A stretch of 64,000 bases of DNA from Desulfobaccales bacterium. GTDB taxonomy: Bacteria; Desulfobacterota; Desulfobaccia; Desulfobaccales; 0-14-0-80-60-11. Both the position numbers and the translations under genes were made by a program. The notes under the pieces are model-generated. The model was not told the DNA's origin, made no database searches, and worked only from the letters and a program-made list of their open reading frames with translations. Below are positions 41,194 to 61,936 of this stretch, piece by piece. How positions within the stretch are numbered: position 1 is the stretch's first letter; the number at the start of each line of letters is the position of its first letter. The stretch is from positions 1,892 to 65,891 of the forward strand of contig JBIOJX010000001.1 of NCBI GenBank assembly GCA_044451265.1, given 5' to 3'.

Positions 41194-41242
41194 GGTTAAA
41201 CAGGGGAAAGGTGGCCGCCCCCTTCTCCTTTCCCCTGCCCCA

Positions 41243-41273
41243 CCTTCTCCCAACCGGCTGGGTTGGGAGAAGG
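41243..41273 (+). terminator. 13-bp perfect stem-loop after the Spy-like gene (no canonical U tract)
   Basis: ccttctcccaacc-ggctg-ggttgggagaagg; preceded by a second hairpin, GGGGAAAGG...CCTTTCCCC. Confidence 0.4.
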
Positions 41274-41392
41274 TTAAAGGGGTGACTTTAGCCGCCGGTT
41301 AACTGATCAAAGATTATGCCGCAGCCTCGGCCACCACGATCAAATAGTTATGGAACTTTTATTACGAGAGAGGCGTGAAAGGGATAAAGGAG

Positions 41393-42088: not shown

Positions 42089-42112
42089 AGCCCCATCCAT
42101 ACGAAGGAGATT

Positions 42113-43441
42113 GTGGTGGAGGGAGTTCCAAAGAAAGAACTTTCACTGTTTGACTCAACCTGCATTATTGTGGGGATCATTATCGGCGCCGGCATTTATG
42201 AAACTGCCCCGATAGTGGCCAAATGCTTGGGAAGTGGGCCTGGCCTGATGCTTGTCTGGCTGACAGGAGGGCTCCTGGCGTTGACGGGCGCCCTGTGCTA
42301 TGCGGAGCTGGCCACCGCCTATCCCCGGGAAGGCGGCGACTACGTTTACCTGACCCGCGCCTATGGCCGCTGGCCGGGCTATATGTTCGGTTGGTCCCAG
42401 TTGGCCATTGTCAGGCCTGGGGATATCGCCCTGATGGCCTTCATCTTTGCCCGATATGCCCAGACACTGTATGCCCCATTTGAACATAGTGGCCTGTTCT
42501 ATGCCGCATCGGCCATCGTGGTGCTGACCATCATCAACATCCTGGGCGTCAAGGCGGGGAAATGGACGCAAAACCTGCTCACCATCACCAAGATCCTGGG
42601 ACTGGTGGGCATCAGTGTAGTCGGCCTAACGGCCCCTCTTGCGGCGCCCCTGCCCCCCGCATCTGGGAGCTTTACTTGGGAAGGGCTGCAACTGGCCTTT
42701 ATCTTGGTGTTTTTCACCTTTGGTGGCTGGAACGAAATGGCTTATGTGGCCGCCGAGGTCAAGCGGCCACACCCAAATATCGTCCGTGCCTTGGTGGCGG
42801 GGACCATAGCGGTAACCGTCCTCTATCTACTGATCAATGGCGCTTTCCTCTCCGCTCTGGGGCTATCGGGCTTGTCTTCCTCCCCAGCTGTGGCCGTTGA
42901 GATGATGGGGAAGGTTTTTCCGCAGGCTGCCGGCCGGGTCATCGCTATCCTCATTTGCATATCGGCCCTGGGGGCGGTTAATGGCCTGGTCTTTACCGGG
43001 GCGCGTATTTCCTATGCCCTGGGTGTCGACCATAAATCCTTCCGTCCTTTGGGCAGATGGAGCCCGAGTCTCGGCACACCGGTGTGGGCCCTGGTAGTTC
43101 AAGGGGTCTTGAGCCTGGCCATCGTCCTGACAGCCGGCTCTTTTTTAGATACCATCCTTTACACCGCTCCCGTGGTTTGGTTATTCTTTCTCGCTACCGG
43201 ATTGTCGGTTTTCGTTCTCCGGCACAAGGAACCAGGCATACTGCGCCCTTATAAGGTACTGGCCTATCCCCTGGTCCCCCTGCTCTTTTCTGGCTGCTGC
43301 CTTTTTATGCTATTCAGTTCCTCTTCATACGCCCTACTCAAGAAACCCATAGGTCTGCTTTTCCTGTCGGCAGTAATCCTGTTGGGGGTGATAGTTTACT
43401 GGTTCAGCGCTGGGTGGGAACATAGGAGATCAGAGAGTTAG
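42113..43441 (+). CDS. APC-superfamily amino acid/polyamine permease
   Basis: 442 aa, about 12 hydrophobic helices; N-terminal ..IVGIIIGAGIYETAP.. motif and ..FTFGGWNEMAYVAAEVK.. Confidence 0.88.
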   Translation: MVEGVPKKELSLFDSTCIIVGIIIGAGIYETAPIVAKCLGSGPGLMLVWLTGGLLALTGALCYAELATAYPREGGDYVYLTRAYGRWPGYMFGWSQLAIVRPGDIALMAFIFARYAQTLYAPFEHSGLFYAASAIVVLTIINILGVKAGKWTQNLLTITKILGLVGISVVGLTAPLAAPLPPASGSFTWEGLQLAFILVFFTFGGWNEMAYVAAEVKRPHPNIVRALVAGTIAVTVLYLLINGAFLSALGLSGLSSSPAVAVEMMGKVFPQAAGRVIAILICISALGAVNGLVFTGARISYALGVDHKSFRPLGRWSPSLGTPVWALVVQGVLSLAIVLTAGSFLDTILYTAPVVWLFFLATGLSVFVLRHKEPGILRPYKVLAYPLVPLLFSGCCLFMLFSSSSYALLKKPIGLLFLSAVILLGVIVYWFSAGWEHRRSES

Positions 43442-43598
43442 CCATTCACTTGAGATTTCCCGCGGCTCGACGCGGTTGAGGCAAGGTGCCAGGAAATGGA
43501 GCAAGAAAATGTAGCATCCAAAAAAGTTGACTTAACAACCGCCGATTTCTTTTTTTTACGCTGTTGTATATGCATGAAACCGATTATCCGCTTTTGAG

Positions 43599-43727
43599 AT
43601 GGAAATGCTGAAGAAGATCGCCAAAGAAAGCCAGTCGGCCGTAATCGTGGTCACCCACGATGTGCGGATGATTGAAGGGTTTGACTGTGTTTATCAACTG
43701 AAGGACGGCCGACTGAACCAGGGGTAG
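43599..43727 (+). pseudogene. C-terminal fragment of an ABC-transporter ATPase (LolD/MacB-like)
   Basis: ..[41 protein letters not shown] is the H-loop/C-terminal end only. A stop lies 24 nt upstream; no Walker motifs present. Confidence 0.6.
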
Positions 43728-43783
43728 GTAGATGGTTTTGCCATTAGCAGAGCGAAGAGTGAATGAAGATAAAAGGATAGGAT

Positions 43784-44296
43784 ATGGCGATAAAGCGCGT
43801 GACTGGGCGTCATGACTTCTTCCTGGCGGCCGGCCTCCTCGGTCTTGCCATGATTCTTGGGGTCATGTTCCATTGGCCCCTGGTGCGGGCTTCCTTGAGA
43901 GGAAACCTGACAACGCTGCTTGACCAGAAGCGCCAGGAACGACGAGAGGTGCAATTCCAAGGAGTAAAAACTTTGGATTTGGCGCAAGCCTACCAAATCT
44001 GGCAGCAAAAGCGAGTTCTCTTCGTGGACGCCCGCAAGGCCGAAGAATATCAGGAGTTACACGTTCAGGGGGCGATGAATGTCCCTCCGGAAACCTGGGG
44101 GGAGCTTGCATCTTCTGAATTGATGAAGAAGGATAGAATGGGGGAACTGGTGGTCTATTGCAGCCAGGAAAGCTGCGACGACGCCCTCAAATTGGCCAAA
44201 AAGCTGCGGGAGGCCGGTTTTACCCGGGTGCTGGCCTTTACTGGGGGCTTCCGGGCCTGGGACGAAGCCGGCTACCCGGCGGATACCAGTCGATAG
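43784..44296 (+). CDS. membrane-anchored rhodanese-domain sulfurtransferase
   Basis: N-terminal helix; ..VLFVDARKAEEYQELHVQGAMNVP...VVYCSQESCDDA (active-site Cys loop) ...GGFRAWDEAGYP. Confidence 0.85.
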   Translation: MAIKRVTGRHDFFLAAGLLGLAMILGVMFHWPLVRASLRGNLTTLLDQKRQERREVQFQGVKTLDLAQAYQIWQQKRVLFVDARKAEEYQELHVQGAMNVPPETWGELASSELMKKDRMGELVVYCSQESCDDALKLAKKLREAGFTRVLAFTGGFRAWDEAGYPADTSR

Positions 44297-44297
44297 C

Positions 44298-44801
44298 ATG
44301 ATAAAGGGGAGGGGGAATTTGTCAGCCTCGATTAAGCGGTTTGTATTTTCGATCTTAGGTTTGGGACTAGGTGGGGTTTTCGTCTATGCAGGCATCCAGA
44401 AGCACCTGGCCCCTTATGAGTTCGCCGAAGCCATCCTGGCCTACCAATTGCTGCCATTTGGACTGGTGGGTCTGGTGGCCGTAACCCTGCCCTGGTTGGA
44501 GATGGTTTCCGGGTTCTCCCTGGCCATGGGATACCTCATGCGAGGCCGGCGATTTTCCAACCCGATCCAAATGGGAGGCCTTCTCCGGCGCAGCGCCCTC
44601 CTGCTGATCTTGGGCCAGTCGCTCCTGTTTGTCGCCGTGCTACTTATCGCCATGGCCCGGGGGCTGAAAATCGACTGTGGCTGTGGTCTTTTTATGGATC
44701 GGCAAGTGGGATTTGGAGCCATCCTGGAAGACGCCTTGCTTTTGGGGGTGCTGGGGTGGCTTTACTGGCGGGAACGCCGGGCCGGGGTCCGAGAGCTTTA
44801 A
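44298..44801 (+). CDS. MauE/DoxX-family membrane protein
   Basis: Four hydrophobic helices; ..VYAGIQKHLAPYEFAEAILAYQLLP.. and a ..DCGCG.. motif. Commonly paired with rhodanese genes. Confidence 0.7.
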   Translation: MIKGRGNLSASIKRFVFSILGLGLGGVFVYAGIQKHLAPYEFAEAILAYQLLPFGLVGLVAVTLPWLEMVSGFSLAMGYLMRGRRFSNPIQMGGLLRRSALLLILGQSLLFVAVLLIAMARGLKIDCGCGLFMDRQVGFGAILEDALLLGVLGWLYWRERRAGVREL

Positions 44802-47504: not shown

Positions 47505-48629
47505 ATGATCAGGTCCCTTAACAGTTTTTTCCGGAGATTCTGGGTCTCAAAACCTCCTGCGTTCCAGTACCTCCAGGTGGAAGTGACCACCCGTTGCGAT
47601 CTCTCCGGCTGCTTGATGTGCCCCCGGAGCGCCTGGCCGGAGCGCTGGTTACACCAGGATCTCTCCTGGCAAAATTTTGAACGGCTCATCCCGGCTCTCA
47701 AATTTTTCAAACATGTTCATTTAAGCGGCTGGGGTGAGCCCCTGTTACACCCGCGGCTATGGGATATGGCCCAAGCAGCCCGCTCCCAGGGCTGCACCGT
47801 CAGCCTGACTACCAACGGCATGAATTTAACCGAAGCCATGCAGGTGCAGGTCTTGGAGCATCTGGACATGGTTGCGGTGTCACTGGATGGGGCAACGGCT
47901 GAAACTTTTGAGCGGCTGCGGCCTGGGGCCGATTTTCAGCGAGTCACCCAACAGGTTGCGGCGCTTTGCTCTCGCAAGCGGTCTCTGGGAAGACCGCGGC
48001 CGGAGGTGGTCTTACTGTTTATGAAGATGCGGCCTAATCTTACCGAATTACCTGCTTTCATCGAATTGGCTGCATCGTTTGGAGTTGATCGGGTCAATGC
48101 CACTAACCTGGATTTTATCCCAAATCCGGCAATGGAAGGCTTATCCCTCATAGCACCCAGTCCTCCAAGCCGGAAAATTGCAGAAGTGCTTGAACGGGCT
48201 GGTCAGAAGGCCAGGGAATTAAACTTGCCATTTCGCGATCTTAGCCTAATCTCGGCTGACGATCTTATGGTCTGCGCCGCCAATCCTCTTGAGAATGTCT
48301 TTGTCACCGCTTCCGGCGACCTCGCACCTTGCGTTTACCTGGGTCTGCCCTTATCTGGAGATTTCTCCAGGCAGTTCTTTCAAAAATCTGTCACCGCGCA
48401 AAATTACCTTTATGGCAGTATCCATCTCCAGGAATTTCTGGAAATCTTTCAACAACGGGCTTATCAGGAGTTCATTGGCTGTTTTCGCCGTCGGGTGCAA
48501 GAAAGTTCGAACCTGATTAATGATTTGGTGCCGAACTGCCAGACTTCAATTACGCAAAATCGGCTTACCTCGGAGCGATTTCCTTGGCCGCCTGCTTGCC
48601 AGGGATGTTACAAAAAACTCGGTTTTTAA
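47505..48629 (+). CDS. radical SAM protein with SPASM/twitch-like C-terminal domain
   Basis: ..LQVEVTTRCDLSGCLMCP.. cluster motif, GWGEPLLHP, SLDGATAETFERLR; C-terminal Cys-rich region ..CAANPLENVFVTASGDLAPCVYLG. Confidence 0.85.
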   Translation: MIRSLNSFFRRFWVSKPPAFQYLQVEVTTRCDLSGCLMCPRSAWPERWLHQDLSWQNFERLIPALKFFKHVHLSGWGEPLLHPRLWDMAQAARSQGCTVSLTTNGMNLTEAMQVQVLEHLDMVAVSLDGATAETFERLRPGADFQRVTQQVAALCSRKRSLGRPRPEVVLLFMKMRPNLTELPAFIELAASFGVDRVNATNLDFIPNPAMEGLSLIAPSPPSRKIAEVLERAGQKARELNLPFRDLSLISADDLMVCAANPLENVFVTASGDLAPCVYLGLPLSGDFSRQFFQKSVTAQNYLYGSIHLQEFLEIFQQRAYQEFIGCFRRRVQESSNLINDLVPNCQTSITQNRLTSERFPWPPACQGCYKKLGF

Positions 48630-48808: not shown

Positions 48809-49768
48809 ATGCGTATTCTCCTGAAACACGCTTGCCTGGTCCATGTGGTTCTGGCATTGGGCCTGGTCTTAATGATCAGCAGTTGCAGCGACGACCGCGA
48901 TAAAACGGTAGTGGACTTCTCCAGGACCGTGCCAGTGGCCCGGCCAGGAGAGCGGGCCTCCCCGACTCCGCCTTTGCGGGTTGCCGTGGCCGCCATGATT
49001 TCTCCAAAGGAGACCTTCGACCTCTACCGGCAACTTCTGGCCTACCTGGGGAGCAAGCTCGGTAAAGACCTGGAATTCGTACAACGTAAAACTTATGCGG
49101 AAATCGATGAACTTCTCAAAAAAGGCGAAATTGATCTGGCCTTCATCTGCTCGGGCCCTTATGTAGCCGGCAGGGGAAATTTTGGCTTCGAGTCCTTGGC
49201 CGTGCCAGAAATCCACGGCAGCCATTTCTACCACTCCTACCTGATTGTCAATAAAGAAAGCCCCATCCATCGCCTGGAAGAACTTAAAGGGCATACCTTT
49301 GCTTTTACTGACCCCGATTCCAATACCGGCCGGCTGGTCCCCACTTCCTGGCTGGCGGAAGTACATGAGAAGCCGGAAACCTTTTTCAACCGCATTGTCT
49401 ATACTTATAGCCATGATAATTCCATCATGGCGGTTGCCAGAAATCTGGTGGACGGCGCGACGGTGGACGGACTGATTTGGGACTTTTACCAACTGAAGAA
49501 TCCAACTTTTACTTCCCAAACCCGAATTATCAAGAAATCTGAACCATTCGGTAACCCGCCCCTGGTAGCTTCCAAGAACCTCTCAGTCGATTCCAAAGAG
49601 CGGATTCGGCAGATCTTATTCTCCATGCACCAGGACCCGGAAGGCAAAAAGATCCTAGCGGAATTGATGATTGACCGGTTTATCGCTCCTCAGGATGAAT
49701 GGTACGACAACCTGAGGCAGATGTACCAACGGGTAGCGGGAGGAAAAGATAAATCCCATGCGCCTTAG
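48809..49768 (+). CDS. PhnD-like periplasmic substrate-binding protein
   Basis: Signal/lipobox-like MISSCSD; ..[64 protein letters not shown].. Confidence 0.8.
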
Positions 49769-51950
49769 GAGCCTTCAGAGTAAGTTACTCCTTGCGGTCA
49801 GTGCCCTGGTTATCGCCAGTGGGCTGGTTATAACACTATTGCTCACCCGCCAATACAGTTCTGCCCTGCGCAAGGCCATGGTCAGCCAGGTGGAAAACGC
49901 TGCCCAAACCATTGCCCTGGATGCCGCAGACAAGATTCTCGTCAACGACCTGGTCTCCTTGCAAAGAATGCTGGACCAGCAGATTCAGAGCAACACCGCA
50001 CTTGGCTATATCTTGATTTTGAGAGATAGCCAGGTTCTTGCCCATACCTTTGAACGTGGCGTTCCCGCAGAATTGCTGGGCGCTAACCATACCGTTGCTG
50101 GAGAACGGCCCCACCTGCGGGAAATCGTTTCCCAAAAAGGGGAATACTTCCTCGATGCCGCCTGGCCTATCTTTGGAGGCAAGGCCGGAGTCTTGCGGCT
50201 GGGTTTTTCTGAAAGTCAATACCGCCGCCAGGTGGCCCAATTGTGGTTGGAGATCGGTTTGTTTACCCTGGGAATACTATTGATCGCCTGGATTGGGAGT
50301 CTGTTTTTCGTGCGGCGCATAACCCGACCCCTGGCTGCCCTGGTCCAGGCGACGCAAGAGATTGACCGGGGTGAATCGAATGTACAGGTTGACGTGCAGG
50401 GGCAGGATGAAATCGCAGCACTGGCGGAATCCTTCAACCACATGGTCAGCCGCCAGCAGGAATACACCCATCGTCTCGAAGAGCAGGCCATGGAGCTGGA
50501 GCGCTCCCATGGGCAGACTGTCACGGCCTGTAAAATTGTCCAAGAGGTCAGCGCCCTGCGTACCCTGGATGAGATGGGCGCCATTTTGTTGAAAAGACTG
50601 AAGGACTCCATGCTCTGCCAGCATCTGGTGTTGGCTCTCCTCAGCTCCGCTAAGGATACGCTTTATGTCCTGTCAGGCCAGAAGGCTAGGATATTTCATG
50701 ATCCGCAAATCATCCAGGCGGTCAAAGACAACTTGGAAGGGCTTAAAAATGTGACGTTCTCCCGCCGCAAACTCTTCAAAGCGCCTTTACTCCCCGAAGA
50801 CTTTACCCTGGCGGAGCGTCAGGCCATTATCCCGCTAAGCAGTGAGCAACTTTGCGGCGCCGCAATCGTAGCCTGCCCGGGAGGATGCGCCTGCAATCAA
50901 GAGGAGATCGAGCGGGTCCGCCTCATCTTGAACCAGACTGCTGGTGCTTTGGGCCGGGCCGTTTTCCACGAAGACGAGGTCATTGGGCTCAAAAAGCGGC
51001 TGGACGCGGCTACTGGATTTGGGGATTTGATCGGCAAAGACCCCAAGATGCAGCTGGTCTATAAGCTCATCGAAGACGTGGCGCCCTCGGATGCCACAGT
51101 ACTGATCCAGGGCGAAAGCGGGACTGGCAAGGAACTGGTGGCCCGGGCCATTCATCAGCATAGCCCCAGGAAAGACGGACCTTTCGTGGTAATTAATTGC
51201 TCGGCGTATCCCGCCACGCTGTTGGAGAGCGAACTTTTCGGCCATGAGAAAGGCTCCTTCACCGGGGCCTTGCGCCAAAAGGCGGGGCGGTTTGAGCAGG
51301 CCAATGGCGGCACGGTTTTTCTTGACGAGGTAGGGGACATTCCGCTCCCCGCCCAGGTCAAATTGCTGCGGGTCCTGCAAACCCGGAAATTTGAGCGAGT
51401 GGGAGGAGAGCAGACGCTCACGGTAGATGTGCGGGTCTTGGCGGCCAGCCATAAAGACCTGGTCCAAGAGGTCAAGAACGGCAACTTTCGGGAGGATCTC
51501 TTCTATCGACTCGATGTAATCCCCATCCACCTGCCGCCATTGCGGGAGCGCAAAAACGATATTCCTTTGCTGGTTGAGCATTTCCTGAAGCTTTTTTCTG
51601 CAGAAAGAAGAAAAGACATCCAAGGGCTCAGTTCTGAAGCCTTGCGAATACTTTTGAATTACTCCTGGCCGGGCAATGTCCGTGAACTGGAAAATACTAT
51701 CGAGCATGCCGTCGTCTTGGCTAAGGCTGGACAGGTGGACGCCTGGGATTTGCCTGCCGCCATTCAGGCTAGTTCGCCGGGAGCTTCGCCCACTCTGGCA
51801 CAGAGAGAGGGAAAAACCCTTCTGGAAATCCTGGAAGAATGCGGCTGGAATAAAAAATTGGCAGCCCAGCGCTTAGGGATTAGCCGCAGCACCCTCTATC
51901 TCATGCTGAAAAGGCACAAGATTTCCGGCTCCAAACCCACCACTCATTAA
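49758..51950 (+). CDS. membrane-anchored sigma-54-dependent transcriptional activator (2 TM + periplasmic domain + HAMP + GAF-like + AAA+ + Fis-type HTH)
   Basis: Hydrophobic helices near residues 10-30 and 165-190; HAMP ([10 protein letters not shown]...AESFNHMV); [14 protein letters not shown] Walker A; GSFTGA (GAFTGA variant); C-terminal [21 protein letters not shown]. 11-nt overlap with the PhnD-like gene. Confidence 0.9.
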
Positions 51951-51977: not shown

Positions 51978-52079
51978 TGTGTCCGAAGGACCGTTTTCGC
52001 GTCCGATTTTAGGACATAGCTAATTAGCTGCAATAATTACTTATTTATAAAAGTGTCTAAGAGTGTCGTGTCCGATAGG
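51978..52079 (+). promoter_or_regulatory. candidate upstream activator sites: three GTCCGA-containing inverted repeats
   Basis: tGTGTCCgaaGGACc (51978-51991), gcGTCCgattttaGGACa (51999-52015), gtGTCCgataGGCC (52068-52079). They lie 110-215 nt upstream of the sigma-54 promoter, with an AT-rich stretch between. Confidence 0.3.
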
Positions 52080-52191
52080 CCTTGTCGGCCGATTGAGATC
52101 ATCCAGTTCGCACAACTTCCTCAAGGAAGTTTCATTATAATTTCAATCACATAAGGTTTGCGTAAGGAATTTCTGCAAAGCCCAGAAGGCT

Positions 52192-52207
52192 TGGCCTGAA
52201 ATATGCT
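52192..52207 (+). promoter_or_regulatory. sigma-54 (-24/-12) promoter TGGCCTGAAATATGCT
   Basis: The GG and GC dinucleotides are spaced exactly as in TGGCAC-N5-TTGCW. Located 34-49 nt upstream of the receiver gene that heads the molybdoenzyme operon. Confidence 0.55.
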
Positions 52208-52255
52208 CTTTAGATCAGGCAAAACTCCAATTAAGGGTCTTTGGGTAATTCAGTC

Positions 52256-52648
52256 ATGGGAATGCTCAGGGTTGCGGTAGTTGATGCTGATGTACAGTAT
52301 TGCCGGGAACTCTGCGCCTTGTTGGAGGAGGCCAATGTCCCGGTAGCCCCGCTCTATTCCCTGGAAGATTTGGCCGCGCACTTAAGGAGAGAGCCGGTTG
52401 CGGTGTTGATCATTGATCTGGATACCTTGCCAATCGACAATAACGTTTTTCGGAACCTTAAAAAACAATACGCCAACATGCATATCCTGTGTCTCTCCAG
52501 CCGCAATTATCACCCGGGCCTGGAAGAGGCTATGGGAGCGCATATTTGCGCCAGCCTGGCTAAGCCCTTAGACTCCGAGGAACTTTTTTACTGGCTTAAG
52601 GCCATTGCCGAAATTAACCCAGTGGAGCAAACCGAAAAACCCGGATGA
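52256..52648 (+). CDS. single-domain response-regulator receiver protein
   Basis: VAVVDAD...VLIIDLD...LCLSS...AKP pattern of CheY-like receivers. The track start (TTG 52241) is possible; ATG at 52256 is preferred. Confidence 0.7.
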
Positions 52649-52695
52649 AGGGTTGGTCCTTTAGTGCGGGGAATATGAATGAAGGAGATATCAGC

Positions 52696-53586
52696 ATGGA
52701 CAGACGTTCTTTTGTGAAGATAGGCGGTCTCCTAGGCGGCGCCCTTGGGGCGGCCGATCTTTTATTTATTGGAGACGCGCTTGCCAACCCTGCGGCTGAC
52801 CGAAGCGCCAGCCTGCCTGTGCTTGATCGGGTAAAAGCCGAGCCGGGCGAAGACGTGCTGATTCGCATGCAGCGTGAACTGGTCCGAGCGATGAACAAAC
52901 CCCTCGAGCAGCGGCGCTGGGGGATGGTCATCGACACGCGCAAGTGCGTTGGGTGTCATTCCTGTAATGTGGGCTGCATCATGGAAAACAAGCTCCCTCC
53001 CGGGGTGGTTTATCGCCCGGTGATCGACCAGGAAGTCGGCAGCTATCCCAATGTCGGCCGCAGGTTTCTGCCGCGGCCCTGCATGCATTGCGATAATCCT
53101 CCCTGCGTTCCGGTCTGCCCGGTCAAAGCCACCTGGAAGCGCCCCGACGGCGCGGTGGTGATTGATTATAATGTCTGTATCGGCTGCCGTTACTGCCTCA
53201 CCGCCTGCCCGTACCAGGCGCGGACGTTCGACTTCGGAGAGAACTGGGACAGTAAGGCCGCTTCCGGAAACGATGGGGGCCTGGCGCTGGAGACTTGCCG
53301 AAAATATGGGCAAGAGCCTTCTTTTGAGTATGGCTCCACCTGGCACCGCGGCGAAGGCGTCATCCCGAAAAGTCCGGTCGGTAATGCCCGGAAGTGCACC
53401 TTCTGTGTGCACCGGCTGGAGCATCGCCAATTGCCCATGTGCGTCACAACCTGCATCGGGAGGGCGACTTTTTTCGGCGACCTCAATGACCCGACGACTC
53501 TCGTATCCCAGCAAGCCGTACAAAACAACGCCGTGAGCTTAAAGCCGGAGCTTGGTACTACACCTAAGGTTCGTTACCTGCTTTAA
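52696..53586 (+). CDS. 4x[4Fe-4S] ferredoxin-type electron-transfer subunit (TtrB/PsrB/DmsB-like) with its own twin-arginine signal
   Basis: [20 protein letters not shown]; [45 protein letters not shown]...CVTTC. ATG at 52696 preceded by GAAGGAG. Confidence 0.9.
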
Positions 53587-53602
53587 CGCCAAGGAGGTCA
53601 CA

Positions 53603-54829
53603 ATGGCTGTCTCTTCCGTCTCTTCAATTGACATTGCCAGTCCTGCCAACCGGGCGCGCCTGTTATGGACCCTGTGGATTCTGGCGGCTATCATCGGCGG
53701 GATTGGTTTTATTGAGCGTTTGGTCCACGGCGAACAGGCCGCGGACTTTTCCAGTTATATCCCCTGGGGTCTGTGGGTTGCCGCTTATATCTATTTCAGT
53801 GGCTTGTCGGCCGGAGCGTTCCTGCTTGCCGCCGCTGCCTACGTTTTTAGAATACGGGTGCTCGAACCGATTGTCCGCCCGGCACTTCTCCTTGCTGCGG
53901 TGACGCTTCCCATGGGCCTGCTGCTCATCGGCTTTGACCTGGGCCATTTGGAAAGAGCTCTCCTGGTCTTCATCCGCCCCCAATTTCATTCGATGATGGC
54001 CTGGATGGTCTGGCTTTATACCGCCTACCTGATCCTGGTGATCGCGATGCTGTGGTTGAGCCTCAGGAGCATTCAGCCCGGCAGGAATCCTGAAGCGGTG
54101 GCCAATGACCGGGCCAGGGTGCGCCAGTTAGCAATTATTGGTATTCCCCTGGCTATCGCGTTTGCCGGAGGCGTCGGCGCCCTGTTTGCGACCCTCAACG
54201 CCCGGGAGTTTTGGAATTCCTCGTTATTTCCGGTCTTTTTCCTGGTCGGGGCCCTGACGTCCGGGACGGCCTTGGTGACTGCGGTGGTTGCCTGGCTCTG
54301 GCCTTCCCGGGATGCCGCCTGGAAAGACCTCGTGACTTTACTGGGTCGTATCGTTTTGGTGTTCATCCTCATCGATGTTGTCCTGGAATGGGCGGAGTTT
54401 TCGACCCCGTCATGGTATCAGATCGGCTCGTTTTTTGAGATCACCAGGTATGTCCTGTTTGGACCATACTGGTATGTGTTCTGGCTGGTGCACCTGCTGC
54501 TGGGCGTCCTCGTGCCGATTCTGCTCCTGGCAAAAGCCCGCAGCCCGGTGGTCACGGGAGTCGCTGCCGCCCTGGTGACGATCACCTTCTTCGCGGTACG
54601 GCTGAATCTGGTGATCCCCGGTCTGATCACTCCGGAACTTCGAGGCCTGGAGCAGGCATATCGCGATCCCATCGGCAACCGGCTCACCTTCGCCTACTTC
54701 CCGTCCTGGTCTGAGTGGGAATTGCTCCTGGGCGTGATTGCTGTCGGCGTTGCCCTTTGGTACGTGGTGGTACGACGATTCCCGCAAGTTTTCCTTAGTC
54801 CTGCGCAATCCAGTGAGGTGAGCCAATGA
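53603..54829 (+). CDS. NrfD/PsrC/TtrC-family integral membrane quinol-interacting subunit
   Basis: About 8-10 helices; ..YIPWGLWVAAYIYFSGLSAGAFLL.. typical NrfD N-terminal motif. ATG at 53603 preceded by AAGGAGG. Confidence 0.88.
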   Translation: MAVSSVSSIDIASPANRARLLWTLWILAAIIGGIGFIERLVHGEQAADFSSYIPWGLWVAAYIYFSGLSAGAFLLAAAAYVFRIRVLEPIVRPALLLAAVTLPMGLLLIGFDLGHLERALLVFIRPQFHSMMAWMVWLYTAYLILVIAMLWLSLRSIQPGRNPEAVANDRARVRQLAIIGIPLAIAFAGGVGALFATLNAREFWNSSLFPVFFLVGALTSGTALVTAVVAWLWPSRDAAWKDLVTLLGRIVLVFILIDVVLEWAEFSTPSWYQIGSFFEITRYVLFGPYWYVFWLVHLLLGVLVPILLLAKARSPVVTGVAAALVTITFFAVRLNLVIPGLITPELRGLEQAYRDPIGNRLTFAYFPSWSEWELLLGVIAVGVALWYVVVRRFPQVFLSPAQSSEVSQ

Positions 54830-57800
54830 GCGAGAAACATGAAACGGAAAAAGTGAGCCGGCGGTATTTTCTAACCGCCTGCAGCGCCCTGGCCGGTGGC
54901 GTGGCCCTCAGCGCCTGGGGTTGCAGCTCTGAGCAAAAGGGCTTGGACGGCACCAAGCCTGGGCCCTATCCCATGGCCGACGCCGAGAACATCATCCACT
55001 CCACCTGCCTGCAATGCAATACGCAGTGCACCCTCAAGGTCAAGATCCAGGACGGCCTGGTTACCAAAATAGACGGAAATCCTTATAGCCCCATTGCGTT
55101 GTTTCCGCATTTGCCTTATGAAACCCCGCCCAAAGAAGCCGTGGCGGTTGATGGGGCGATTTGCCCGAAAGGTCAAGGCGGCGTGCAGACCCTCTATGAC
55201 CCCTATCGCGTGCGACGGGTCCTCAAACGCGCCGGGGCTCGCGGTTCGAACAAATGGCGCGCCATTCCCTTCGAACAGGCCATCCAGGAGATCAGCGAGG
55301 GCGGCCAACTATTTGCCGACCTTGGTGAGAAACGCGTGGTGCCGGGGTTCAAGGAGGTCATCAGGCTTAAGGACGCCAAGCTGGCCAAAGAACTGGCAGC
55401 CGATGTGGAGGCCATCCGTAGCGGTGCAATGACCGTAGAGGCTTTCAAAGCCAAGCATTCCGCACACCTGGATATGCTGATCGATCCGGATCATCCCGAC
55501 CTGGGGCCCAAGAACAATCAATTTGTCTTGCAGGGCGGACGTATCTCCCCGGATCGTGAAGTGATCACCAAACGTTTCGTTTTCGGGACCCTGGGATCGG
55601 CCAACTGGTTCGGGCACACGACCATTTGCGAACAGGCTCATCATGTGGCCTTCATGTACTCCCTGGCCCAATGGCACGAAAAAGACGGCAAGTTCTCCTG
55701 GGCCAAGGGCCCCAATCATATGAAGCCCGATTATACCCAGGCAGAGTTCGTGATCTTCTGGGGCACCGGCTTCAACGAAGCGAATTTCGGGCCTACCCCG
55801 ATGAGCCCCCGGGTGGCGCAGGCCATCGTGGACGGAAAGCTCAAGATCGCCGTGATCGACCCGCGGCTGTCGAAGAGTGCGGCCAAAGGCTGGTGGATTC
55901 CCGTCAATCCAACCGGCAACTTGGCGCTGGCCCTGGCCATGACCCGATGGATCATCGACAACAAAGGCTATGACGAAAAGTTCCTGCGGAATGCGAACAA
56001 GGCCGCGGCCAACGCCGCCGGCGAGAAGAGCTGGACCAATGCTACCTGGCTGGTGAACCCCAAAACCGGCAAATTTCTCCGTGCCGCCGAGGCGGGCGTG
56101 GGAACCCCGAACCAGTTCGTGGCGCTGGTGGGGGGCACACCGGTAGCCGTAGATCCTTCTGACACCAAGACCCCGGTGGTCGGCGATCTGGATGTGGCGG
56201 CAACTATTAACGGAATTCCGGTCTCTTCAAGCTTTAGACTGCTCAAGGAGGCGGCAGCCGTCAAAAGTCTGGCTGAATACGCCGAAATTGCCGGATTGGA
56301 CGCATCTCAGATTGAAGCCTTGGCAAGGGAGTTCACCGGTCACGGGAAAAAGGCTGCCATCGACTTTTACCGCGGTCCCATCAAAACGACTTATGGCTAT
56401 TATACCGCGCAAGCGATTATCATCCTGAACTTCCTCATCGGCAATGTGGACCATGTGGGCGGATTCATGAAAGGGGGTGGCGCCTGGGACGGCACCGGCG
56501 GGAAGCCGGGACAGCCTTTCCCGGTGGCCAAGCTGCATCCGAATGCACTGACGAACTTCGGCATCAAGCTGACGCGGGAAAGCTCGGGCCCGTACGAAAC
56601 CTGCACCCTCTTCAAGCGGGACGGCTATCCGGCGAAGCGGCCCTGGTTTCCCTTTACCGATGATGTGTACCAGGAGATTATCCCTACCGCGACCGCCGGC
56701 TACCCGTATCCGATTAAGATTCTCTGGATTCATTATGGCACCCCGGTGATGGCCTCGCCCGCCGGGCACCTCCAGATCAAGATGCTCCAGGATACCGAAA
56801 AGATTCCGCTCCTCATCGCCACGGATATCGTGATCGGCGAGACGAGCATGTACGCCGACTACATCTTTCCGGACCTGTCGTATCTGGAGCGCTGGTCCAA
56901 CCCGCTGGGCACCAGCCCGGTGGTCCTGACGCAGATCAGCAAATTCAGGCAACCGGTGGCGGCGCCGATCCCCGAGATCGTCACCATTGACGGCGAGGAG
57001 ATGCCGATCAGCCTTGATGCCACCCTGATAGCCCTGGCCAAAAAGTTGGGAGTATCCGGATTTGGCAAAGACGCCTTCGGACCCGGTCAAAACCTGAACC
57101 GGCCTGAGGATTTTTATCTCAAGATGGTCGCCAATCTTGCTGCCGGCGATAAGCCCGGAAATGCGGTGCCTGCAGCCGACGCGGCCGAGATGGAGTTATT
57201 GCGCCAAGCCAGGCGGCATCTGCCTAAGGCCGTTTTTGACGAGGAGAAGTGGCGGGCCGCGGTGGGCGACCATTGGCCGCAGGTGGCCTATCTGCTCAAC
57301 CGCGGCGGGCGGTTCGAGGCTAAATCGGGCGCTTACGAAGGAGGCTTTGCCAAGCACCCCTGGGCGAATCAACTGAACATCTATGTCGAGCCGGTCGGAA
57401 CAGGCATACACGCCGTGCAGGGCCAGCGGTTTTCGGGCGTGCCGGTTTATCAAGAGCTTGAATCCATCGACGGGAAGCCGGTATCGTCCCCAGATGAGTT
57501 CAACTTGGCGCTGATCACTTATAAGGAAATTCATGGCTGTGAGTCCCGCACGATCGGCAACTACGCCGCGCAGATGGCGATTATGCCGGAGAATTTCGTC
57601 AACTTGAATGCACTCGACGCCAAGCGCCTGGGCTTGGTTGACGGCGACACCGTGAGGGTCGAGACCGGGGGGTTCAAAGGGAGCTTCGAAGTGGGGCCGG
57701 GCCAGGCGCCAAGCAAAGTGGAAGGCAAGGTCCGCGTTACCCAAGGGCTGCGGCCGGGGGTGGTCAGCGTCTCTTTCCATTATGGCCACTGGGCTTACGG

Positions 57801-57978
57801 GTCTCGTGATATCGAAATAGATGGCCAGCGGATCCCTGGAGAGCCGGCGCGCGGTAAGGGGCTGGCGACCAATGCGGCGATGGCCGTCGATGGTTACCTT
57901 AAGGATGTCTGCCTGACGGACCCGATTGCCGGAGACAGCGCGTTCACTGGCAGGATAAAACTGGTCAAGATTGCCTAG
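54826..57978 (+). CDS. molybdopterin (bis-MGD) oxidoreductase catalytic subunit, 1050 aa, Tat signal with lipobox
   Basis: SRRYFLTACSALAGGVALSAWGCSS; N-terminal Fe-S motif HSTCLQCNTQCTLKV...CPKG; large MopB-type body; C-terminal ..GDTVRVET..G.....V.VT.G.RPGVVSVS.HYGHW beta-barrel domain. Confidence 0.92.
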   Translation: MSEKHETEKVSRRYFLTACSALAGGVALSAWGCSSEQKGLDGTKPGPYPMADAENIIHSTCLQCNTQCTLKVKIQDGLVTKIDGNPYSPIALFPHLPYETPPKEAVAVDGAICPKGQGGVQTLYDPYRVRRVLKRAGARGSNKWRAIPFEQAIQEISEGGQLFADLGEKRVVPGFKEVIRLKDAKLAKELAADVEAIRSGAMTVEAFKAKHSAHLDMLIDPDHPDLGPKNNQFVLQGGRISPDREVITKRFVFGTLGSANWFGHTTICEQAHHVAFMYSLAQWHEKDGKFSWAKGPNHMKPDYTQAEFVIFWGTGFNEANFGPTPMSPRVAQAIVDGKLKIAVIDPRLSKSAAKGWWIPVNPTGNLALALAMTRWIIDNKGYDEKFLRNANKAAANAAGEKSWTNATWLVNPKTGKFLRAAEAGVGTPNQFVALVGGTPVAVDPSDTKTPVVGDLDVAATINGIPVSSSFRLLKEAAAVKSLAEYAEIAGLDASQIEALAREFTGHGKKAAIDFYRGPIKTTYGYYTAQAIIILNFLIGNVDHVGGFMKGGGAWDGTGGKPGQPFPVAKLHPNALTNFGIKLTRESSGPYETCTLFKRDGYPAKRPWFPFTDDVYQEIIPTATAGYPYPIKILWIHYGTPVMASPAGHLQIKMLQDTEKIPLLIATDIVIGETSMYADYIFPDLSYLERWSNPLGTSPVVLTQISKFRQPVAAPIPEIVTIDGEEMPISLDATLIALAKKLGVSGFGKDAFGPGQNLNRPEDFYLKMVANLAAGDKPGNAVPAADAAEMELLRQARRHLPKAVFDEEKWRAAVGDHWPQVAYLLNRGGRFEAKSGAYEGGFAKHPWANQLNIYVEPVGTGIHAVQGQRFSGVPVYQELESIDGKPVSSPDEFNLALITYKEIHGCESRTIGNYAAQMAIMPENFVNLNALDAKRLGLVDGDTVRVETGGFKGSFEVGPGQAPSKVEGKVRVTQGLRPGVVSVSFHYGHWAYGSRDIEIDGQRIPGEPARGKGLATNAAMAVDGYLKDVCLTDPIAGDSAFTGRIKLVKIA

Positions 57979-58067
57979 GCGCTCGCCTTGGGGTGGTAGC
58001 CCTTCACCAGGATGAACTGGACCGCATCATAATCGGTGGCGCCATAGCCTTACAGGAGCCTAATGAG

Positions 58068-58784
58068 ATGGAGCAAGCCGTAAATACCAAGACCTCGGTG
58101 CAAACCTTTGAGGAGTTGCTGGCCGGTTCGGTAGCGGCTCATGGCCACCTGTGCCCAGGTCAGATCGTGGGAGTACGGATGGGCCTCCTGGGCCTGCGCC
58201 TCCTGGGTTTCGAGGCCCCGCCGACGTATCCCCAACTGAAGCAGCTCGTCGTCTTTATCGAGATGGACCGCTGCACCGGCGACGCGGTGGCTTTTGTCAC
58301 CAATGTTAAGCTGGGGCGGCGGTCCCTGAAGTTCATGGACTACGGCATCATGGCGGCCACCTTCGTAAATCTGGAAAGTGGCCGGGCCTTCCGGGTCATC
58401 TCTACTGAGGAATCCCGGGACCTGGCCCTGATGTACGCCCCCCTGGAGACCGACAAGCGCGCGGCCCAATTGACCGCGTACCGGATTATGCCGGATAGCG
58501 TGCTCTTCCGGGTGCAGCAGGTGCAAGTCGACCTGACCCCCTTTGACCTGCCGGGCCCGACCCGCCGCAAAGTTACCTGCGTGCACTGCGGCCAGGTGGT
58601 CCGGGATAACCGGGAGGTGGTCAAAGATGGCCTGTCTTACTGTCGGCCATGCGCCGGCGGGGGATATTTTACGGCGGCCCGAGAGATTGCCTGGGAAGAA
58701 ATGAACTGGGCGCCGATATCACCGGGTCTGAAAAAACCTGGTTTACCGATCCCAAATGAGTCGGCCGCAGGGAGCCGCCAGTAG
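58068..58784 (+). CDS. FmdE-family protein with C-terminal zinc ribbon
   Basis: ..AAHGHLCPGQIVGVRMG.. FmdE signature; ..CVHCGQVV...SYCRPCAG. Internal ATG at 58068 preferred over GTG at 57993. Confidence 0.8.
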   Translation: MEQAVNTKTSVQTFEELLAGSVAAHGHLCPGQIVGVRMGLLGLRLLGFEAPPTYPQLKQLVVFIEMDRCTGDAVAFVTNVKLGRRSLKFMDYGIMAATFVNLESGRAFRVISTEESRDLALMYAPLETDKRAAQLTAYRIMPDSVLFRVQQVQVDLTPFDLPGPTRRKVTCVHCGQVVRDNREVVKDGLSYCRPCAGGGYFTAAREIAWEEMNWAPISPGLKKPGLPIPNESAAGSRQ

Positions 58785-58800
58785 TCATGAGGTCATTGAG

Positions 58801-59832
58801 ATGATTAAAACCATAAAGCTGGAAGAAGCCATCGGGACCGAACTGGCACATGATATCACCGAGATTCGACCGGGAGAATTCAAGGGTCCCGCCTTCCGCA
58901 AGGGTCACACTGTCTGCCAGGACGATATCTGCCGCATGCAGCGCCTGGGGAAAAACCACCTCTACGTTATCGATCTCGAGGCCGATGAAATCCATGAGAA
59001 CGAAGCTGCGGCCATCCTGGCCGGGGCCCTGGCCGGCGAGGGAGTGACCTGGGAAAATAATCCCAGGGAAGGAAAAATCAATCTCTATGCCGATCGGGAT
59101 GGTCTGCTCCAGGTGGGCGTCCAGGCCCTGGCTGCGTTTAATCTGGTGGATGAGGTGATGTGCGCCACCCTACATAATCATACCATGGTGAAGAAAGGGG
59201 AACTCATTGGCGCCACCCGAGCCATCCCACTGATCATGAAACGAGCCGCCATCGAACGTGCCGCGAGCATTGCCCGTCAAAATGACGCGGTGCTGGCAGT
59301 GCGCCCCCTGACGCAGGCTAAAGCCGGCCTGGTCATCACCGGCAACGAAGTCTATCATGGCCTGATCCAGGACCGGTTCGCTCCCATCCTCTCAGCCAAG
59401 TTGGAGCGTCTGGGGTCCGAGGTGGCTGCTCTTACCTTCGCCCCGGATGATGCCGGGATGATCACCGCCGCCATTCGCGACCATCTAAGCCGGGGCTGCA
59501 ACCTGCTCCTGCTCAGCGGCGGCATGAGCGTGGACCCGGATGACGTCACCCGCCACGCCATCCGCCAGGCCGGGGCCACCGAAATGCATTACGGGTCAGC
59601 GGTCCTGCCCGGGGCAATGTTCCTGGTGGCTTATCTGGGAGAGACGCCCTTGCTGGGGGTGCCCGCCTGTGCCCTGCACCACCCGGTTACCGCCCTGGAC
59701 CTGGTTTTGCCGCGCATCCTGGCGGGGGAACGCCTCGGCAAGCTGGAACTGGCCCTCCTGGGGCATGGCGGCCTGTGCCGGGACTGCCCCCAGTGCAGCT
59801 ACCCCCATTGCCCCTTCGGCAAAGGCATGTGA
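58801..59832 (+). CDS. molybdopterin-binding (MoeA/MoaB-like domain) protein
   Basis: ..VITGNEVYHGLIQDRFAPILSAKLERLGSEV....LLLLSGGMSVDPDDVT.. MoCF-biosynthesis-domain pattern. Start MIKTIKL. Confidence 0.7.
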   Translation: MIKTIKLEEAIGTELAHDITEIRPGEFKGPAFRKGHTVCQDDICRMQRLGKNHLYVIDLEADEIHENEAAAILAGALAGEGVTWENNPREGKINLYADRDGLLQVGVQALAAFNLVDEVMCATLHNHTMVKKGELIGATRAIPLIMKRAAIERAASIARQNDAVLAVRPLTQAKAGLVITGNEVYHGLIQDRFAPILSAKLERLGSEVAALTFAPDDAGMITAAIRDHLSRGCNLLLLSGGMSVDPDDVTRHAIRQAGATEMHYGSAVLPGAMFLVAYLGETPLLGVPACALHHPVTALDLVLPRILAGERLGKLELALLGHGGLCRDCPQCSYPHCPFGKGM

Positions 59833-59835
59833 GTC

Positions 59836-60813
59836 ATGGAAGAAGCCGCTGCACGGCAAATCAATTATCTGCGGATTTCCATTACGGACCGCTGCAATCT
59901 CCGTTGCGGCTATTGTACCTATTGGCAGGAATTTGAACGGTTGCCGCCCGGGGAGATCCTCAGCTATGAGGAGTTGTTGCGGCTTGCCGCGGTGGCGGCG
60001 AAGATTGGCATTCGGAAAATCAGGGTCACCGGCGGCGAGCCCCTGGTGCGCCGGGGAGTGGTGGACTTTCTCCATAACCTGCACCGGACGCCCGGGATTG
60101 AGGAAGTATGCCTGACCACCAATGGCGTGCTGCTGGCGGACTTGGCTCCGGCCTTATATGAGACAGGACTCCGCCACCTTAACCTCAGCCTGGACACCCT
60201 GCGCCGTGAGCGCTATCGAGAAATCACCGGCCGGGATAATTTGGGGGAGGTCCTGGCCGGACTGGAGCGGGCCGTCACCCTGGGCTTCGGCCCTTTAAAA
60301 ATCAATTGTGTGGTGTTGGCCGGCATCAATGACGATGAGCTGATGGATCTGGCCCTCCTGGCCAGGGATCACCCCTATCAGGTGCGGTTCATCGAGCTGA
60401 TGCCCACGGTTTCGCCCCGGCAGTGGCAGCAGAACTTTCTTCCCATGGCGGAGGTCCGCCGTCGTCTGGCCGCTCTGGGTCCCATGGCCGCGACGGACCG
60501 CCGGACTACAGACGGTCCGGCCCAGATCTTTCAGCTACCCGGCTTTCAAGGAGAACTGGGGTTTATCACCCCCATCAGTTCCCATCACTGCCGCACCTGC
60601 AATCGCCTGCGTCTGACCGCAGGCGGCGCCTTGCGGCCCTGTCTTTTTGGCGACGCCGAAATTGATGTAAAGACCCCCTTGAGGCAAGGGGCCTCCGAGG
60701 GTTGGCTGGCTTCGCTTTTCGCCGAAGCCATCACCCAAAAATCCGCCAGATTCTCCTTGCCACCCGCTCCTTTCCCCCTTTACAGCTCCTCCATGGTCAG
60801 CATCGGCGGCTGA
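59836..60813 (+). CDS. moaA: GTP 3',8-cyclase (molybdenum cofactor biosynthesis protein A)
   Basis: INYLRISITDRCNLRCGYCTY, VTGGEPLVR, TTNG..L, C-terminal CxxCNRLRLTAGGALRPCLF. Confidence 0.92.
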   Translation: MEEAAARQINYLRISITDRCNLRCGYCTYWQEFERLPPGEILSYEELLRLAAVAAKIGIRKIRVTGGEPLVRRGVVDFLHNLHRTPGIEEVCLTTNGVLLADLAPALYETGLRHLNLSLDTLRRERYREITGRDNLGEVLAGLERAVTLGFGPLKINCVVLAGINDDELMDLALLARDHPYQVRFIELMPTVSPRQWQQNFLPMAEVRRRLAALGPMAATDRRTTDGPAQIFQLPGFQGELGFITPISSHHCRTCNRLRLTAGGALRPCLFGDAEIDVKTPLRQGASEGWLASLFAEAITQKSARFSLPPAPFPLYSSSMVSIGG

Positions 60814-61700: not shown

Positions 61701-61745
61701 CTGAAAATCCCCGTGTCGGCAGTTCGATTCTGTCCCCCGCCACCA
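61701..61745 (+). repeat. attR core: perfect 45-nt copy of the tRNA-Phe 3' part
   Basis: Identical to 5636-5680. No 5' half of a tRNA precedes it. Followed by about 60 nt resembling the integrase 3' end. Confidence 0.85.
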
Positions 61746-61936
61746 ATGATTTCAGGGGTTAGCCTCAAAGGCTGCCCTTTTTTTATGCCGCTGTTAACGT
61801 TTTGACCCATCCAGGCTATCCTGGGCCTCTGGTGCTGCCGGAAAATCCAAGGTATCGATTCTTTGTATTCCTGCCTAAGAGAAAATCCTAGAGGGAAAGG
61901 TAAGGAATAATCCCAGCAAAATCTCCAGCTGTGCCG

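Follow-up and report, generated by a model that had tools for sequence, protein, structure and literature searches.

A Ttr-like molybdoenzyme operon beside an ArrX-type sensor in a Desulfobaccales bacterium, probably encoding an arsenate reductase

The TtrA homologue of Anaeromyxobacter sp. PSR-1 was reportedly treated by Muramatsu et al. in 2020, and the PAE1265 complex of Pyrobaculum aerophilum reportedly by Cozen in 2009 and Haja in 2020. Homologues of tetrathionate reductase (Ttr) from these two organisms have been proposed or shown to be arsenate reductases, as cited in passages of PMC12949373 and PMC11462812, and in such a passage of the former, the Ttr-like arsenate reductases are reported not to reduce tetrathionate. 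In Melioribacter roseus, the ttrA gene MROS_1076 is induced by arsenate and is preceded by genes for a PhnD-like protein named ArrT (in the set ArrT(X)SR), a kinase and a regulator, together with ars genes (PMC5492636). A hot-spring survey has ascribed arsenate reduction to homologues from Chloroflexota, Desulfobacterota and Deinococcota (PMC11362583), and ttrA transcripts outnumber those of arrA in paddy soils (PMC11462812). Here, we describe an operon at positions 52192-60813 of a 64,000-nucleotide (nt) stretch of a Desulfobaccales bacterium (GCA_044451265.1, contig JBIOJX010000001.1, positions 1,892 to 65,891), hereafter called the window. The operon encodes a molybdoenzyme with the gene order B-C-A, and its sequence and surroundings suggest that it is probably a menaquinol:arsenate oxidoreductase of the published Ttr-like kind, which is distinct from ArrAB. 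A preliminary description of this DNA had left the substrate open. We do not sustain that view, because the ArrX-type sensor, its co-occurrence with the enzyme in 16 of 25 loci, the Arr-like core of the active site (GR and H..C), the recurrent ars genes and the published work on Ttr-like arsenate respiration together point to arsenate.

Like the systems of PSR-1, P. aerophilum and M. roseus, the window combines a catalytic subunit A of the TtrA/SrdA lineage with iron-sulfur (Fe-S) and NrfD-type partners on an arsenic gene island, and both an arsenic neighbourhood and an arsenic-oxyanion sensor, the context of Ttr-like arsenate reductases, are found here. The Gly-Arg motif reported for those enzymes (PMC12949373) is also present in subunit A of the window, as it is in sister clades. 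The upstream set of a PhnD-like ArrT/X sensor, regulators and ars genes is the same as in M. roseus (PMC5492636), and the reported taxa (PMC11362583) match the distribution of the clade to which the window enzyme belongs. The window differs from the described systems in a membrane-bound sigma-54 activator that appears to work without a phosphorelay, in a receiver-only gene, and in a tail of FmdE-like, MoeA-like and MoaA genes. The kind of enzyme has thus been known since 2009-2020, and the fused membrane activator, the tail and a subclade-specific lipobox are local variations. The genes that carry the argument are as follows, Tat denoting twin-arginine translocation and bisPGD the bis-pyranopterin guanine dinucleotide cofactor.

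48809-49768, + strand: ArrX-like periplasmic oxyanion (arsenate) sensor, a Sec lipoprotein (Phosphonate-bd, E 1.4e-68)
49758-51950, + strand: membrane-bound sigma-54 enhancer-binding protein of 730 amino acids (aa) (HAMP; Sigma54_activat, E 3e-73; AAA_lid_14; HTH_8)
52696-53586 (alternative start 52645), + strand: subunit B, a Tat-exported four-cluster ferredoxin (Fer4_11 and related domains, Cys motifs)
53603-54829 (alternative start 53552), + strand: subunit C, an NrfD-type quinol-oxidising membrane anchor (PF03916, E 7e-36)
54826-57978, + strand: subunit A, the Tat-exported Mo/W-bisPGD catalytic subunit (Molybdop_Fe4S4, Molybdopterin and Molydop_binding)

We consider the ArrX-type sensor to be the strongest clue to the substrate. 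Its gene lies 3 kb upstream of the operon, and its signal peptide ends in LMISS/C (the slash marking cleavage), as in a Sec lipoprotein. Among PDB entries, the closest to the sensor is Chrysiogenes arsenatis ArrX (40% identity over 253 aa, 201.7 bits, E 1.6e-58), compared with 153-156 bits for AioX and 72 bits or less for PhnD and PtxB, and the protein aligns without the longer signalling loop of AioX. The pocket of AioX, ArxX and ArrX consists of Tyr, Cys, Tyr, Ser, Ser, His and Asp (AioX positions 88, 106, 131, 161, 163, 192 and 210), and PhnD is without the Cys (PMC5908839). Six of these seven residues in the window sensor are identical to those of ArrX (Y96, C114, Y141, S171, H202 and D220), and T173 stands in place of a Ser. 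Judged by this pocket, the subfamily Cys included, the sensor is a member of the AioX/ArxX/ArrX arsenic-oxyanion subfamily. In isothermal titration calorimetry, ArrX bound arsenate with a dissociation constant of 1 uM and phosphate with one of 150 uM, and no binding was seen with arsenite, antimonite, selenate, tetrathionate or thiosulfate (PMC5908839).

The sensor also bears on the direction of the reaction. Arr and Arx are closely related, the sensor resembles the arsenite sensor AioX as well as ArrX, and AioR and ArxR are sigma-54 activators, as is the regulator here (PMC5908839); an Arx-like anaerobic arsenite oxidase that feeds the quinone pool could therefore be imagined. However, the sensor is nearer to ArrX than to AioX (201.7 vs about 155 bits) and is without the AioX loop, and the operon has no cytochrome, nitrate-reductase or photosynthetic partner. 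Moreover, with potentials of +139 mV for As(V)/As(III) and -74 mV for menaquinone (PMC13490349), reduction is the favourable direction. We regard the oxidative reading as very unlikely.

An ArrX-like gene is found within 10 kb of the BCA genes in 16 of the 25 family loci, which come from several phyla and include those of Humidesulfovibrio mexicanus, Thermus, Moorella humiferrea and Symbiobacteriia. The regulators at these loci vary by phylum: Desulfobacterota, among them the isolate H. mexicanus, have the same membrane activator as the window, and the Moorella, Symbiobacteriia and Thermus relatives have classical pairs of kinase and regulator, with HisKA_3 kinases and GerE regulators in Moorella and Symbiobacteriia and a HisKA_3 kinase in Thermus. 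The sensor therefore stays with the enzyme while the signal-transduction parts are swapped, from which we argue that sensor and enzyme share a ligand. In addition, the window carries genes for Acr3, ArsP and an ArsM-like methyltransferase, and at least six other loci (L004, L008, L012, L013, L028 and L029) have ars genes no more than 10 kb from BCA. Syntrophobacterales loci have Acr3, ArsM, ArsR and a low-molecular-weight-phosphatase-type (LMWP) ArsC; a Chloroflexota locus has Acr3, ArsA and ArsD; Moorella has ArsP, ArsR and Acr3; and an Acidobacteriota locus has LMWP-ArsC and ArsR.

The active site of subunit A resembles that of ArrA at its core. A cluster motif for FS0, C61-x2-C64-x3-C68...C113, is present, and a phmmer alignment with ArrA (6cz7) places GGR239-I on RGR165-Y and H264-TTI-C268-EQAHH on H189-SSV-C193-AEAHK. 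The arsenate-binding residues of ArrA, reportedly treated by Glasser in 2018, are taken to be R165, Y166, H189, S190, K198 and Y210, with C193 as the Mo ligand. R165, H189 and C193 are kept in subunit A, and S190 is replaced by Thr. The Mo ligand, which the preliminary description had left to be identified, is accordingly placed by alignment to C193 at Cys268, the predicted metal ligand, and the predicted arsenate-contacting residues Arg239 and His264 match Arg165 and His189 of ArrA. The motifs (G/A)GR[IV] and HT(T/S)ICE occur in all 121 family members examined, and a protein of Citrobacter arsenatis has them in the form SGRI and HTNICELSHH. TtrA-type sequences have no Arg at the GR position (NTS) and carry HG(A/S)YCG (HGAYCG in TtrA) in place of HTTICE. 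According to a 2026 study, the Gly-Arg pair is conserved in all arsenic-metabolising Arr, Arx and Ttr-like enzymes and is missing from bona fide Ttr (PMC12949373). As a sufficient marker of arsenate the GR motif was nevertheless rejected, because it occurs in many sister clades; it looks necessary only.

The AlphaFold2 model of subunit A (mean predicted local distance difference test score of 88.4) has ArrA as its best fold match in the PDB (E 3e-37). The sequence and fold matches of A in the PDB include no TtrA structure for comparison, and for this reason we treat the ArrA match as weak evidence to which the model adds little. With the ArrAB(C)/ArrXSR systems of Shewanella ANA-3 and Chrysiogenes arsenatis, the window shares a periplasmic, Tat-exported Mo-bisPGD enzyme in which Cys is the predicted ligand, the core of Arg165, His189 and Cys193, and a sensor of the ArrX type, and among solved folds ArrA matches subunit A best. 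The differences are considerable. ArrAB has the order A-B and the window B-C-A; subunit A of the window is about 240 aa longer than ArrA; the ArrA model (NF041714) gives it 98 bits against a cut-off of 1600, so the equivalog score is not reached, and the ArrB model (NF041715) gives subunit B 152.7 bits against 450. The regulator ArrR is of the CitB/NarL type, whereas the window has a sigma-54 enhancer-binding protein.

The preliminary description had placed the enzyme in the Ttr lineage of complex iron-sulfur molybdoenzymes, and this assignment holds: TtrA (NF011567) is the best NCBIfam model for subunit A, the gene order is B-C-A, and Tat signals are present on both A and B. The twin-arginine signals read VSRRYFL in subunit A (1050 aa) and DRRSFV in subunit B, the signal of which runs MDRRSFVK...ALA/NP. 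With the TtrBCA/TtrSR systems of the Salmonella type, including that of a Klebsiella plasmid (L022), the window thus shares the gene arrangement, both Tat signals, a catalytic subunit of about 1020-1050 aa and an NrfD anchor. Subunit C has 408-425 aa and about 10 hydrophobic segments in a simple hydropathy scan, compared with nine helices and about 340 aa in TtrC. For subunit B, the NCBIfam scores are 192.9 bits for DsrO, 184.8 for TtrB (cut-off 416) and 152.7 for ArrB, and none reaches its cut-off. A homologue of subunit A, P0056 (1346 aa), is a natural fusion in which subunit B is joined to the N-terminus of A, with Fer4 and molybdopterin Pfam domains.

Homologues of A were sought among 5.8 billion proteins with the A subunits of the window, Moorella (P0108) and Citrobacter arsenatis as queries. 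Among the matches listed, the family has 53-98% identity to A and comprises Desulfobacterota, Chloroflexota, Bacillota, Thermus, Acidobacteriota and Armatimonadota. Named relatives are Humidesulfovibrio mexicanus (78%), Thermus sp. (69%) and Moorella humiferrea (56%), and metagenome-assembled genomes (MAGs) of Desulfobaccales and Syntrophobacterales also carry members. The homology and representative searches listed no match named Anaeromyxobacter, Geobacter, Pyrobaculum, Melioribacter or Bacillus selenatarsenatis, and no Bacillus-named match was listed with at least 53% identity to A. A scan of genome contigs returned close relatives only. For the tree, outgroups were taken from plasmid records and comprised ttrSR-ttrBCA as named by the Prokaryotic Genome Annotation Pipeline (PGAP; Klebsiella, L022), Ttr-type loci of Pseudomonas and Azospirillum, a haloarchaeal locus and the Citrobacter arsenatis locus. 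The family was monophyletic in 50 of 50 neighbour-joining bootstrap replicates, apart from the group formed by TtrA, Pseudomonas and Azospirillum.

These data allow us to consider a true reductase of tetrathionate or another sulfur compound that merely lies near arsenic genes. The top-scoring TtrA model, the BCA order and the two Tat signals would suit such an enzyme, many homologues are named 'tetrathionate reductase subunit A' in IMG, and sulfur-handling genes are present on the island. However, subunit A reaches 470.5 bits with the TtrA model, where the cut-off is 1750, so the equivalog score is not met, and it is 31% identical to the PGAP-named TtrA and 31-37% identical to the TtrA/Pseudomonas/Azospirillum group. 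The active-site sequence is GGR/HTTICE instead of NTS/HGAYCG. TtrS and TtrR, which are present at the real locus, are not found at the window locus, where the genes upstream encode the ArrX-like protein of the arsenic-oxyanion subfamily and the HAMP-sigma-54 activator. The statement that a Ttr-like arsenate reductase does not reduce tetrathionate (PMC12949373) points the same way. We therefore reject a bona fide tetrathionate reductase and consider the sulfur-compound reading extremely unlikely; the case envisaged earlier, in which A falls inside bona fide TtrA beside a TtrRS-like regulator, is contradicted by the scores, the identity, the tree and the neighbours.

A respiratory reductase for another oxyanion, such as antimonate, thioarsenate or selenate as in SrdBCA, with arsenate at most a side substrate, deserves more attention, and we regard it as unlikely. 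The Srd enzymes had previously been listed with the order A-B-C, which to our knowledge is wrong, since we take the operon of Bacillus selenatarsenatis to be srdBCA. Several points weigh against arsenate, and some of them favour this alternative directly. Three of the six arsenate contacts of ArrA differ in the phmmer alignment (Y166 to Ile, K198 to His and Y210 probably to Pro), so half of them are substituted, and an exhaustive representative search found the GR/HT.ICE motif in many sister clades, which are uncharacterised. The ligand of the sensor could have shifted at 40% identity to ArrX, and the arsenite sensor AioX is the second-best match. No clade member with at least 53% identity was identified with biochemical or genetic characterisation; the clade may be a separate subclade, a sister lineage of the characterised Ttr-like enzymes. 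Several family loci have no ars genes within 10 kb. Furthermore, catalytic versatility has been described for the TtrA/SrdA/alternative-Arr lineage (PMC10100899), genes for thiol and sulfur handling (rhodanese, DsbD, thioredoxins, DGC and OsmC) abound on the island, and antimonate was not in the ligand panel tried on ArrX (PMC5908839). On the other side, the nearest solved sensor takes arsenate and phosphate and not selenate, tetrathionate, thiosulfate or antimonite (PMC5908839), the neighbours that recur are ars and not selenium genes, and the published transcript and genetic evidence on Ttr-like enzymes concerns arsenate. A separate enzyme class with a neighbouring metalloid species as its substrate, antimonate or a thioarsenate being the most attractive, in which a diverged ArrX-like lipoprotein speaks directly to the phosphorelay-free membrane sigma-54 activator, strikes us as quite improbable. 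If it were true, the operon would encode the missing reductase of such a compound, widespread in anoxic soils and peat and dispersed by islands integrated at tRNA genes.

For the arsenate reductase that we prefer, the following sequence of events can be proposed by homology, gene arrangement and analogy. Periplasmic arsenate would be bound by the ArrX-like lipoprotein, which would signal to the periplasmic loop of the neighbouring HAMP-AAA+ activator; the activator would bind the palindromes at about 51980-52090 and open the sigma-54 promoter at 52192. Subunits A and B would be exported in the folded state by Tat, and A of the Desulfobacterota subclade may also be lipid-anchored. By analogy with PsrABC and ArrAB, subunit C would oxidise menaquinol, and electrons would travel by way of the four [4Fe-4S] clusters in B and FS0 in A to a bis-PGD cofactor whose Mo (or W) is ligated by Cys268, where arsenate held by Arg239 and His264 would be reduced to arsenite. 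The co-transcribed FmdE-like, MoeA-like and MoaA proteins would boost or specialise the supply of cofactor, and the arsenite produced would be handled by Acr3, ArsM and ArsP of the island.

Through arsenate respiration, arsenic is released into groundwater and rice paddies, and surveys of arrA alone overlook organisms that use Ttr-like enzymes (PMC11462812). The BCA order, the motif (G/A)GR...HT(T/S)ICE and an adjoining ArrX-type sensor offer a signature for such enzymes in genomes annotated with 'molybdopterin oxidoreductase' or 'tetrathionate reductase'. With the probable assignment made here, the trait is extended to Desulfobaccales and Syntrophobacterales of peat and sediment, where it is carried on an integrase-bearing tRNA-Phe island, and cultured carriers can be named, that is, Humidesulfovibrio mexicanus, Moorella humiferrea and Thermus sp.

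The activator of the window departs from the usual arrangement. A neighbouring kinase (S) and response regulator (R), which usually stand beside such sensors, are not found at the window locus, and a single protein with transmembrane (TM), HAMP, AAA+ and helix-turn-helix (HTH) parts is present instead. Its TM segments (residues 10-28 and 166-184) enclose a periplasmic loop of about 137 aa; it lacks a receiver domain, and Pfam gave no further match within residues 233-420. The start of its gene overlaps the arrX-like gene by 11 nt, an arrangement that indicates translational coupling, and the same pairing is found in L001-L005, L009, L011 and H. mexicanus (L026). AioXSR and ArxXSR resemble the window in two respects, a PhnD-like sensor whose pocket has the subfamily Cys and a molybdoenzyme operon that is activated through sigma-54 (PMC5908839); they differ in having a kinase and a regulator, and the window sensor is nearer to the arsenate-binding ArrX. 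The activator seems to stand in, as a single protein, for the kinase and regulator of AioXSR/ArrXSR, giving an X-S-R scheme without a phosphorelay, and it represents a small, testable variation on that kind of sensing. Two conserved elements follow its gene.

51980-52090, no strand assigned: conserved upstream block with GTCC(GA)-N-(TC)GGAC palindromes (phylogenetic footprint of five orthologous intergenic regions, alignment A1)
52192-52207, + strand: sigma-54 -24/-12 promoter TGGCCTGAAATATGCT (conserved across orthologous intergenic regions)

As a bare pattern, TGGCCTGAAATATGCT is not significant, and because a loose -24/-12 pattern matches 34 times in the window, we rejected the bare pattern as evidence. 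Support for the sigma-54 promoter of the operon, which had been proposed earlier, comes instead from conservation between orthologous loci: the element is invariant in L005, L009 and L011 and has one mismatch in L002, the adjoining DNA diverges, and L003 and L004 have TGGCATG.TGCTTGC in its place. In alignment A1, TTCGCGTCCGA..T.GGACA and TCGTGTCCG are invariant while their flanks diverge. These palindromes sit about 110-210 nt upstream of the sigma-54 element and are candidate binding sites of the activator. The scan for sigma-70 promoters and terminators gave no more than chance level, and Rfam yielded no molybdenum cofactor or other riboswitch, its sole match being a tRNA-Phe.

The region 52192-60813 is a single compact string of genes on the + strand in which neighbours overlap or stand no more than 17 nt apart, and these tight junctions fit one operon. 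The listing of open reading frames and the profile searches recover every gene that had been described there, each on the + strand and in its place. Apart from subunits B, C and A, the string contains the following genes.

52256-52648 (alternative start 52241), + strand: receiver-only protein (Response_reg, 31.5 bits)
57993-58784, + strand: FmdE-like protein with a C-terminal CxxC...CxxC zinc ribbon (PF02663, E 8e-27)
58756-59832, + strand: distant MoeA-like protein with a MoCF_biosynth domain (PF00994, E 2e-21)
59836-60813, + strand: MoaA, GTP 3',8-cyclase (TIGR02666, 334.5 bits vs cut-off 284)

The receiver-only protein, encoded by the first gene of the operon, scores just above the Pfam cut-off for Response_reg (30.2 bits), and its motifs VDAD, IIDLD, LSS and KP occupy the canonical Asp/Ser/Lys positions. 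The gene is present in Desulfobaccales and Syntrophobacterales relatives and missing from the H. mexicanus locus. No histidine kinase lies near this stand-alone gene.

The genes downstream of A are present as had been described, except that the label MoeA/MoaB is weak for the second of them, which is only a remote relative of MoeA (best PDB match Pyrococcus MoeA, E 1.6e-07) and may act in cofactor metal insertion. GTP 3',8-cyclase MoaA catalyses the first step of molybdopterin synthesis. The FmdE-like protein, for which NCBIfam gave no match, is a candidate enzyme-specific maturation factor; its gene is kept 3' of A in L001, L002, L009, L011 and the Chloroflexota locus L013 and lies 8 kb downstream in the Acidobacteriota locus L029. 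The complete tail occurs in close Desulfobaccales and Syntrophobacterales relatives and partly in one Chloroflexota locus, and it is not family-wide.

The lipobox that had been claimed for subunit A stands in part. A Cys does follow the signal, and SAWGC has an atypical Trp at -2, a residue that the PROSITE lipobox rule is not known to permit there. The Cys is limited to a Desulfobacterota subclade, where it occurs in most of the 29 closest cluster representatives (P0001-P0029) and is missing in at least P0024 and P0026; it was not found in the Chloroflexota, Bacillota, Thermus and other members of the family. A family-wide lipobox was therefore rejected, and the Cys may be a lipid anchor in the Desulfobacterota subclade. 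The putative lipid anchor of A and the FmdE-like protein, which had been called unusual, are less general than was implied, the Cys being limited to one subclade and the tail to close relatives and, in part, one Chloroflexota locus.

One further gene upstream of the sensor may concern metalloenzyme maturation.

47505-48629, + strand: radical SAM/SPASM protein, a possible metalloenzyme maturase (Radical_SAM and SPASM)

Its top NCBIfam model is the radical SAM maturase of tungsten-cofactor oxidoreductases, with 147 bits against a cut-off of 380, so no equivalog is reached; being far under that cut-off, it gave us no ground to adopt a tungsten-specific reading. A gene of this type occupies the corresponding position only in L009, and its association with the operon is uncertain.

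The whole operon lies within a genomic island of about 56 kb that is delimited by the following features.

5605-5680: tRNA-Phe (Rfam match)
5636-5680, + strand: attL, the 3' part of tRNA-Phe and left copy of a 45-nt perfect direct repeat
5700-6941, - strand: gene of the phage-integrase family, directly after tRNA-Phe
61701-61745, + strand: attR, where the 45-nt repeat recurs at the right border, about 900 nt past moaA

The operon is placed inside this tRNA-Phe island because the attR repeat stands past moaA. An exact 28-mer of the repeat occurs twice in the window, where 0 occurrences are expected, and is missing from all 30 related loci. Identity at attR extends to 45 nt and is followed by about 45 nt of imperfect similarity (61701-61790), and at the left border the G+C content falls from 0.61-0.64 to about 0.51-0.59. 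The island location fits the patchy distribution of the family across phyla. The island also holds what looks like a complete operon for a V/A-type ATPase (subunits D, B, A, E, I and C/AC39; 9447-17653, - strand); it is an unusual cargo near arsenic genes and could be an ion pump that supports the respiration or detoxification of the island.

Thiol and sulfur genes are packed around the ars genes of the window at 25299-33690 and 38379-44801. They encode Thioredoxin_3, DGC-domain, OsmC, DsbD-like, rhodanese and MauE proteins, a GcvH-like protein with a lipoate ligase and a radical SAM gene, and a pyridine-nucleotide disulfide oxidoreductase. Thioredoxin_3, DGC and ArsP genes occur again beside BCA in Moorella humiferrea (L028) and in an Acidobacteriota MAG (L029).

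A related cluster is found on a plasmid of Citrobacter arsenatis LY-1 (L021, NZ_CP037863.1, 7211-12606), where Ttr-like B-C-A genes are divergent from an adjoining arsRDABC operon. It resembles the window in its B-C-A order, in its active-site motifs, which here read SGRI and HTNICELSHH, and in lying directly beside ars genes, and it differs in that its A subunit is 39% identical to that of the window and belongs to a separate Gammaproteobacteria/Vibrio clade, and in that no ArrX-like sensor is annotated. Conjugative IncF plasmids from Citrobacter, Salmonella, Enterobacter and E. coli carry the same B-C-A cluster, annotated only with 'molybdopterin-dependent oxidoreductase', and it is a candidate plasmid-borne module for arsenate respiration in Enterobacteriaceae.

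A Thermus isolate is said to respire arsenate without a known arrA. The locus of Thermus sp. (L027, JBBIMD010000041.1, 1-7655) encodes a subunit A that is 69% identical to that of the window, its partner subunits B and C, an ArrX-like protein and a kinase of the HisKA_3 type, and this cluster would be a candidate for the arsenate respiration of such an isolate.

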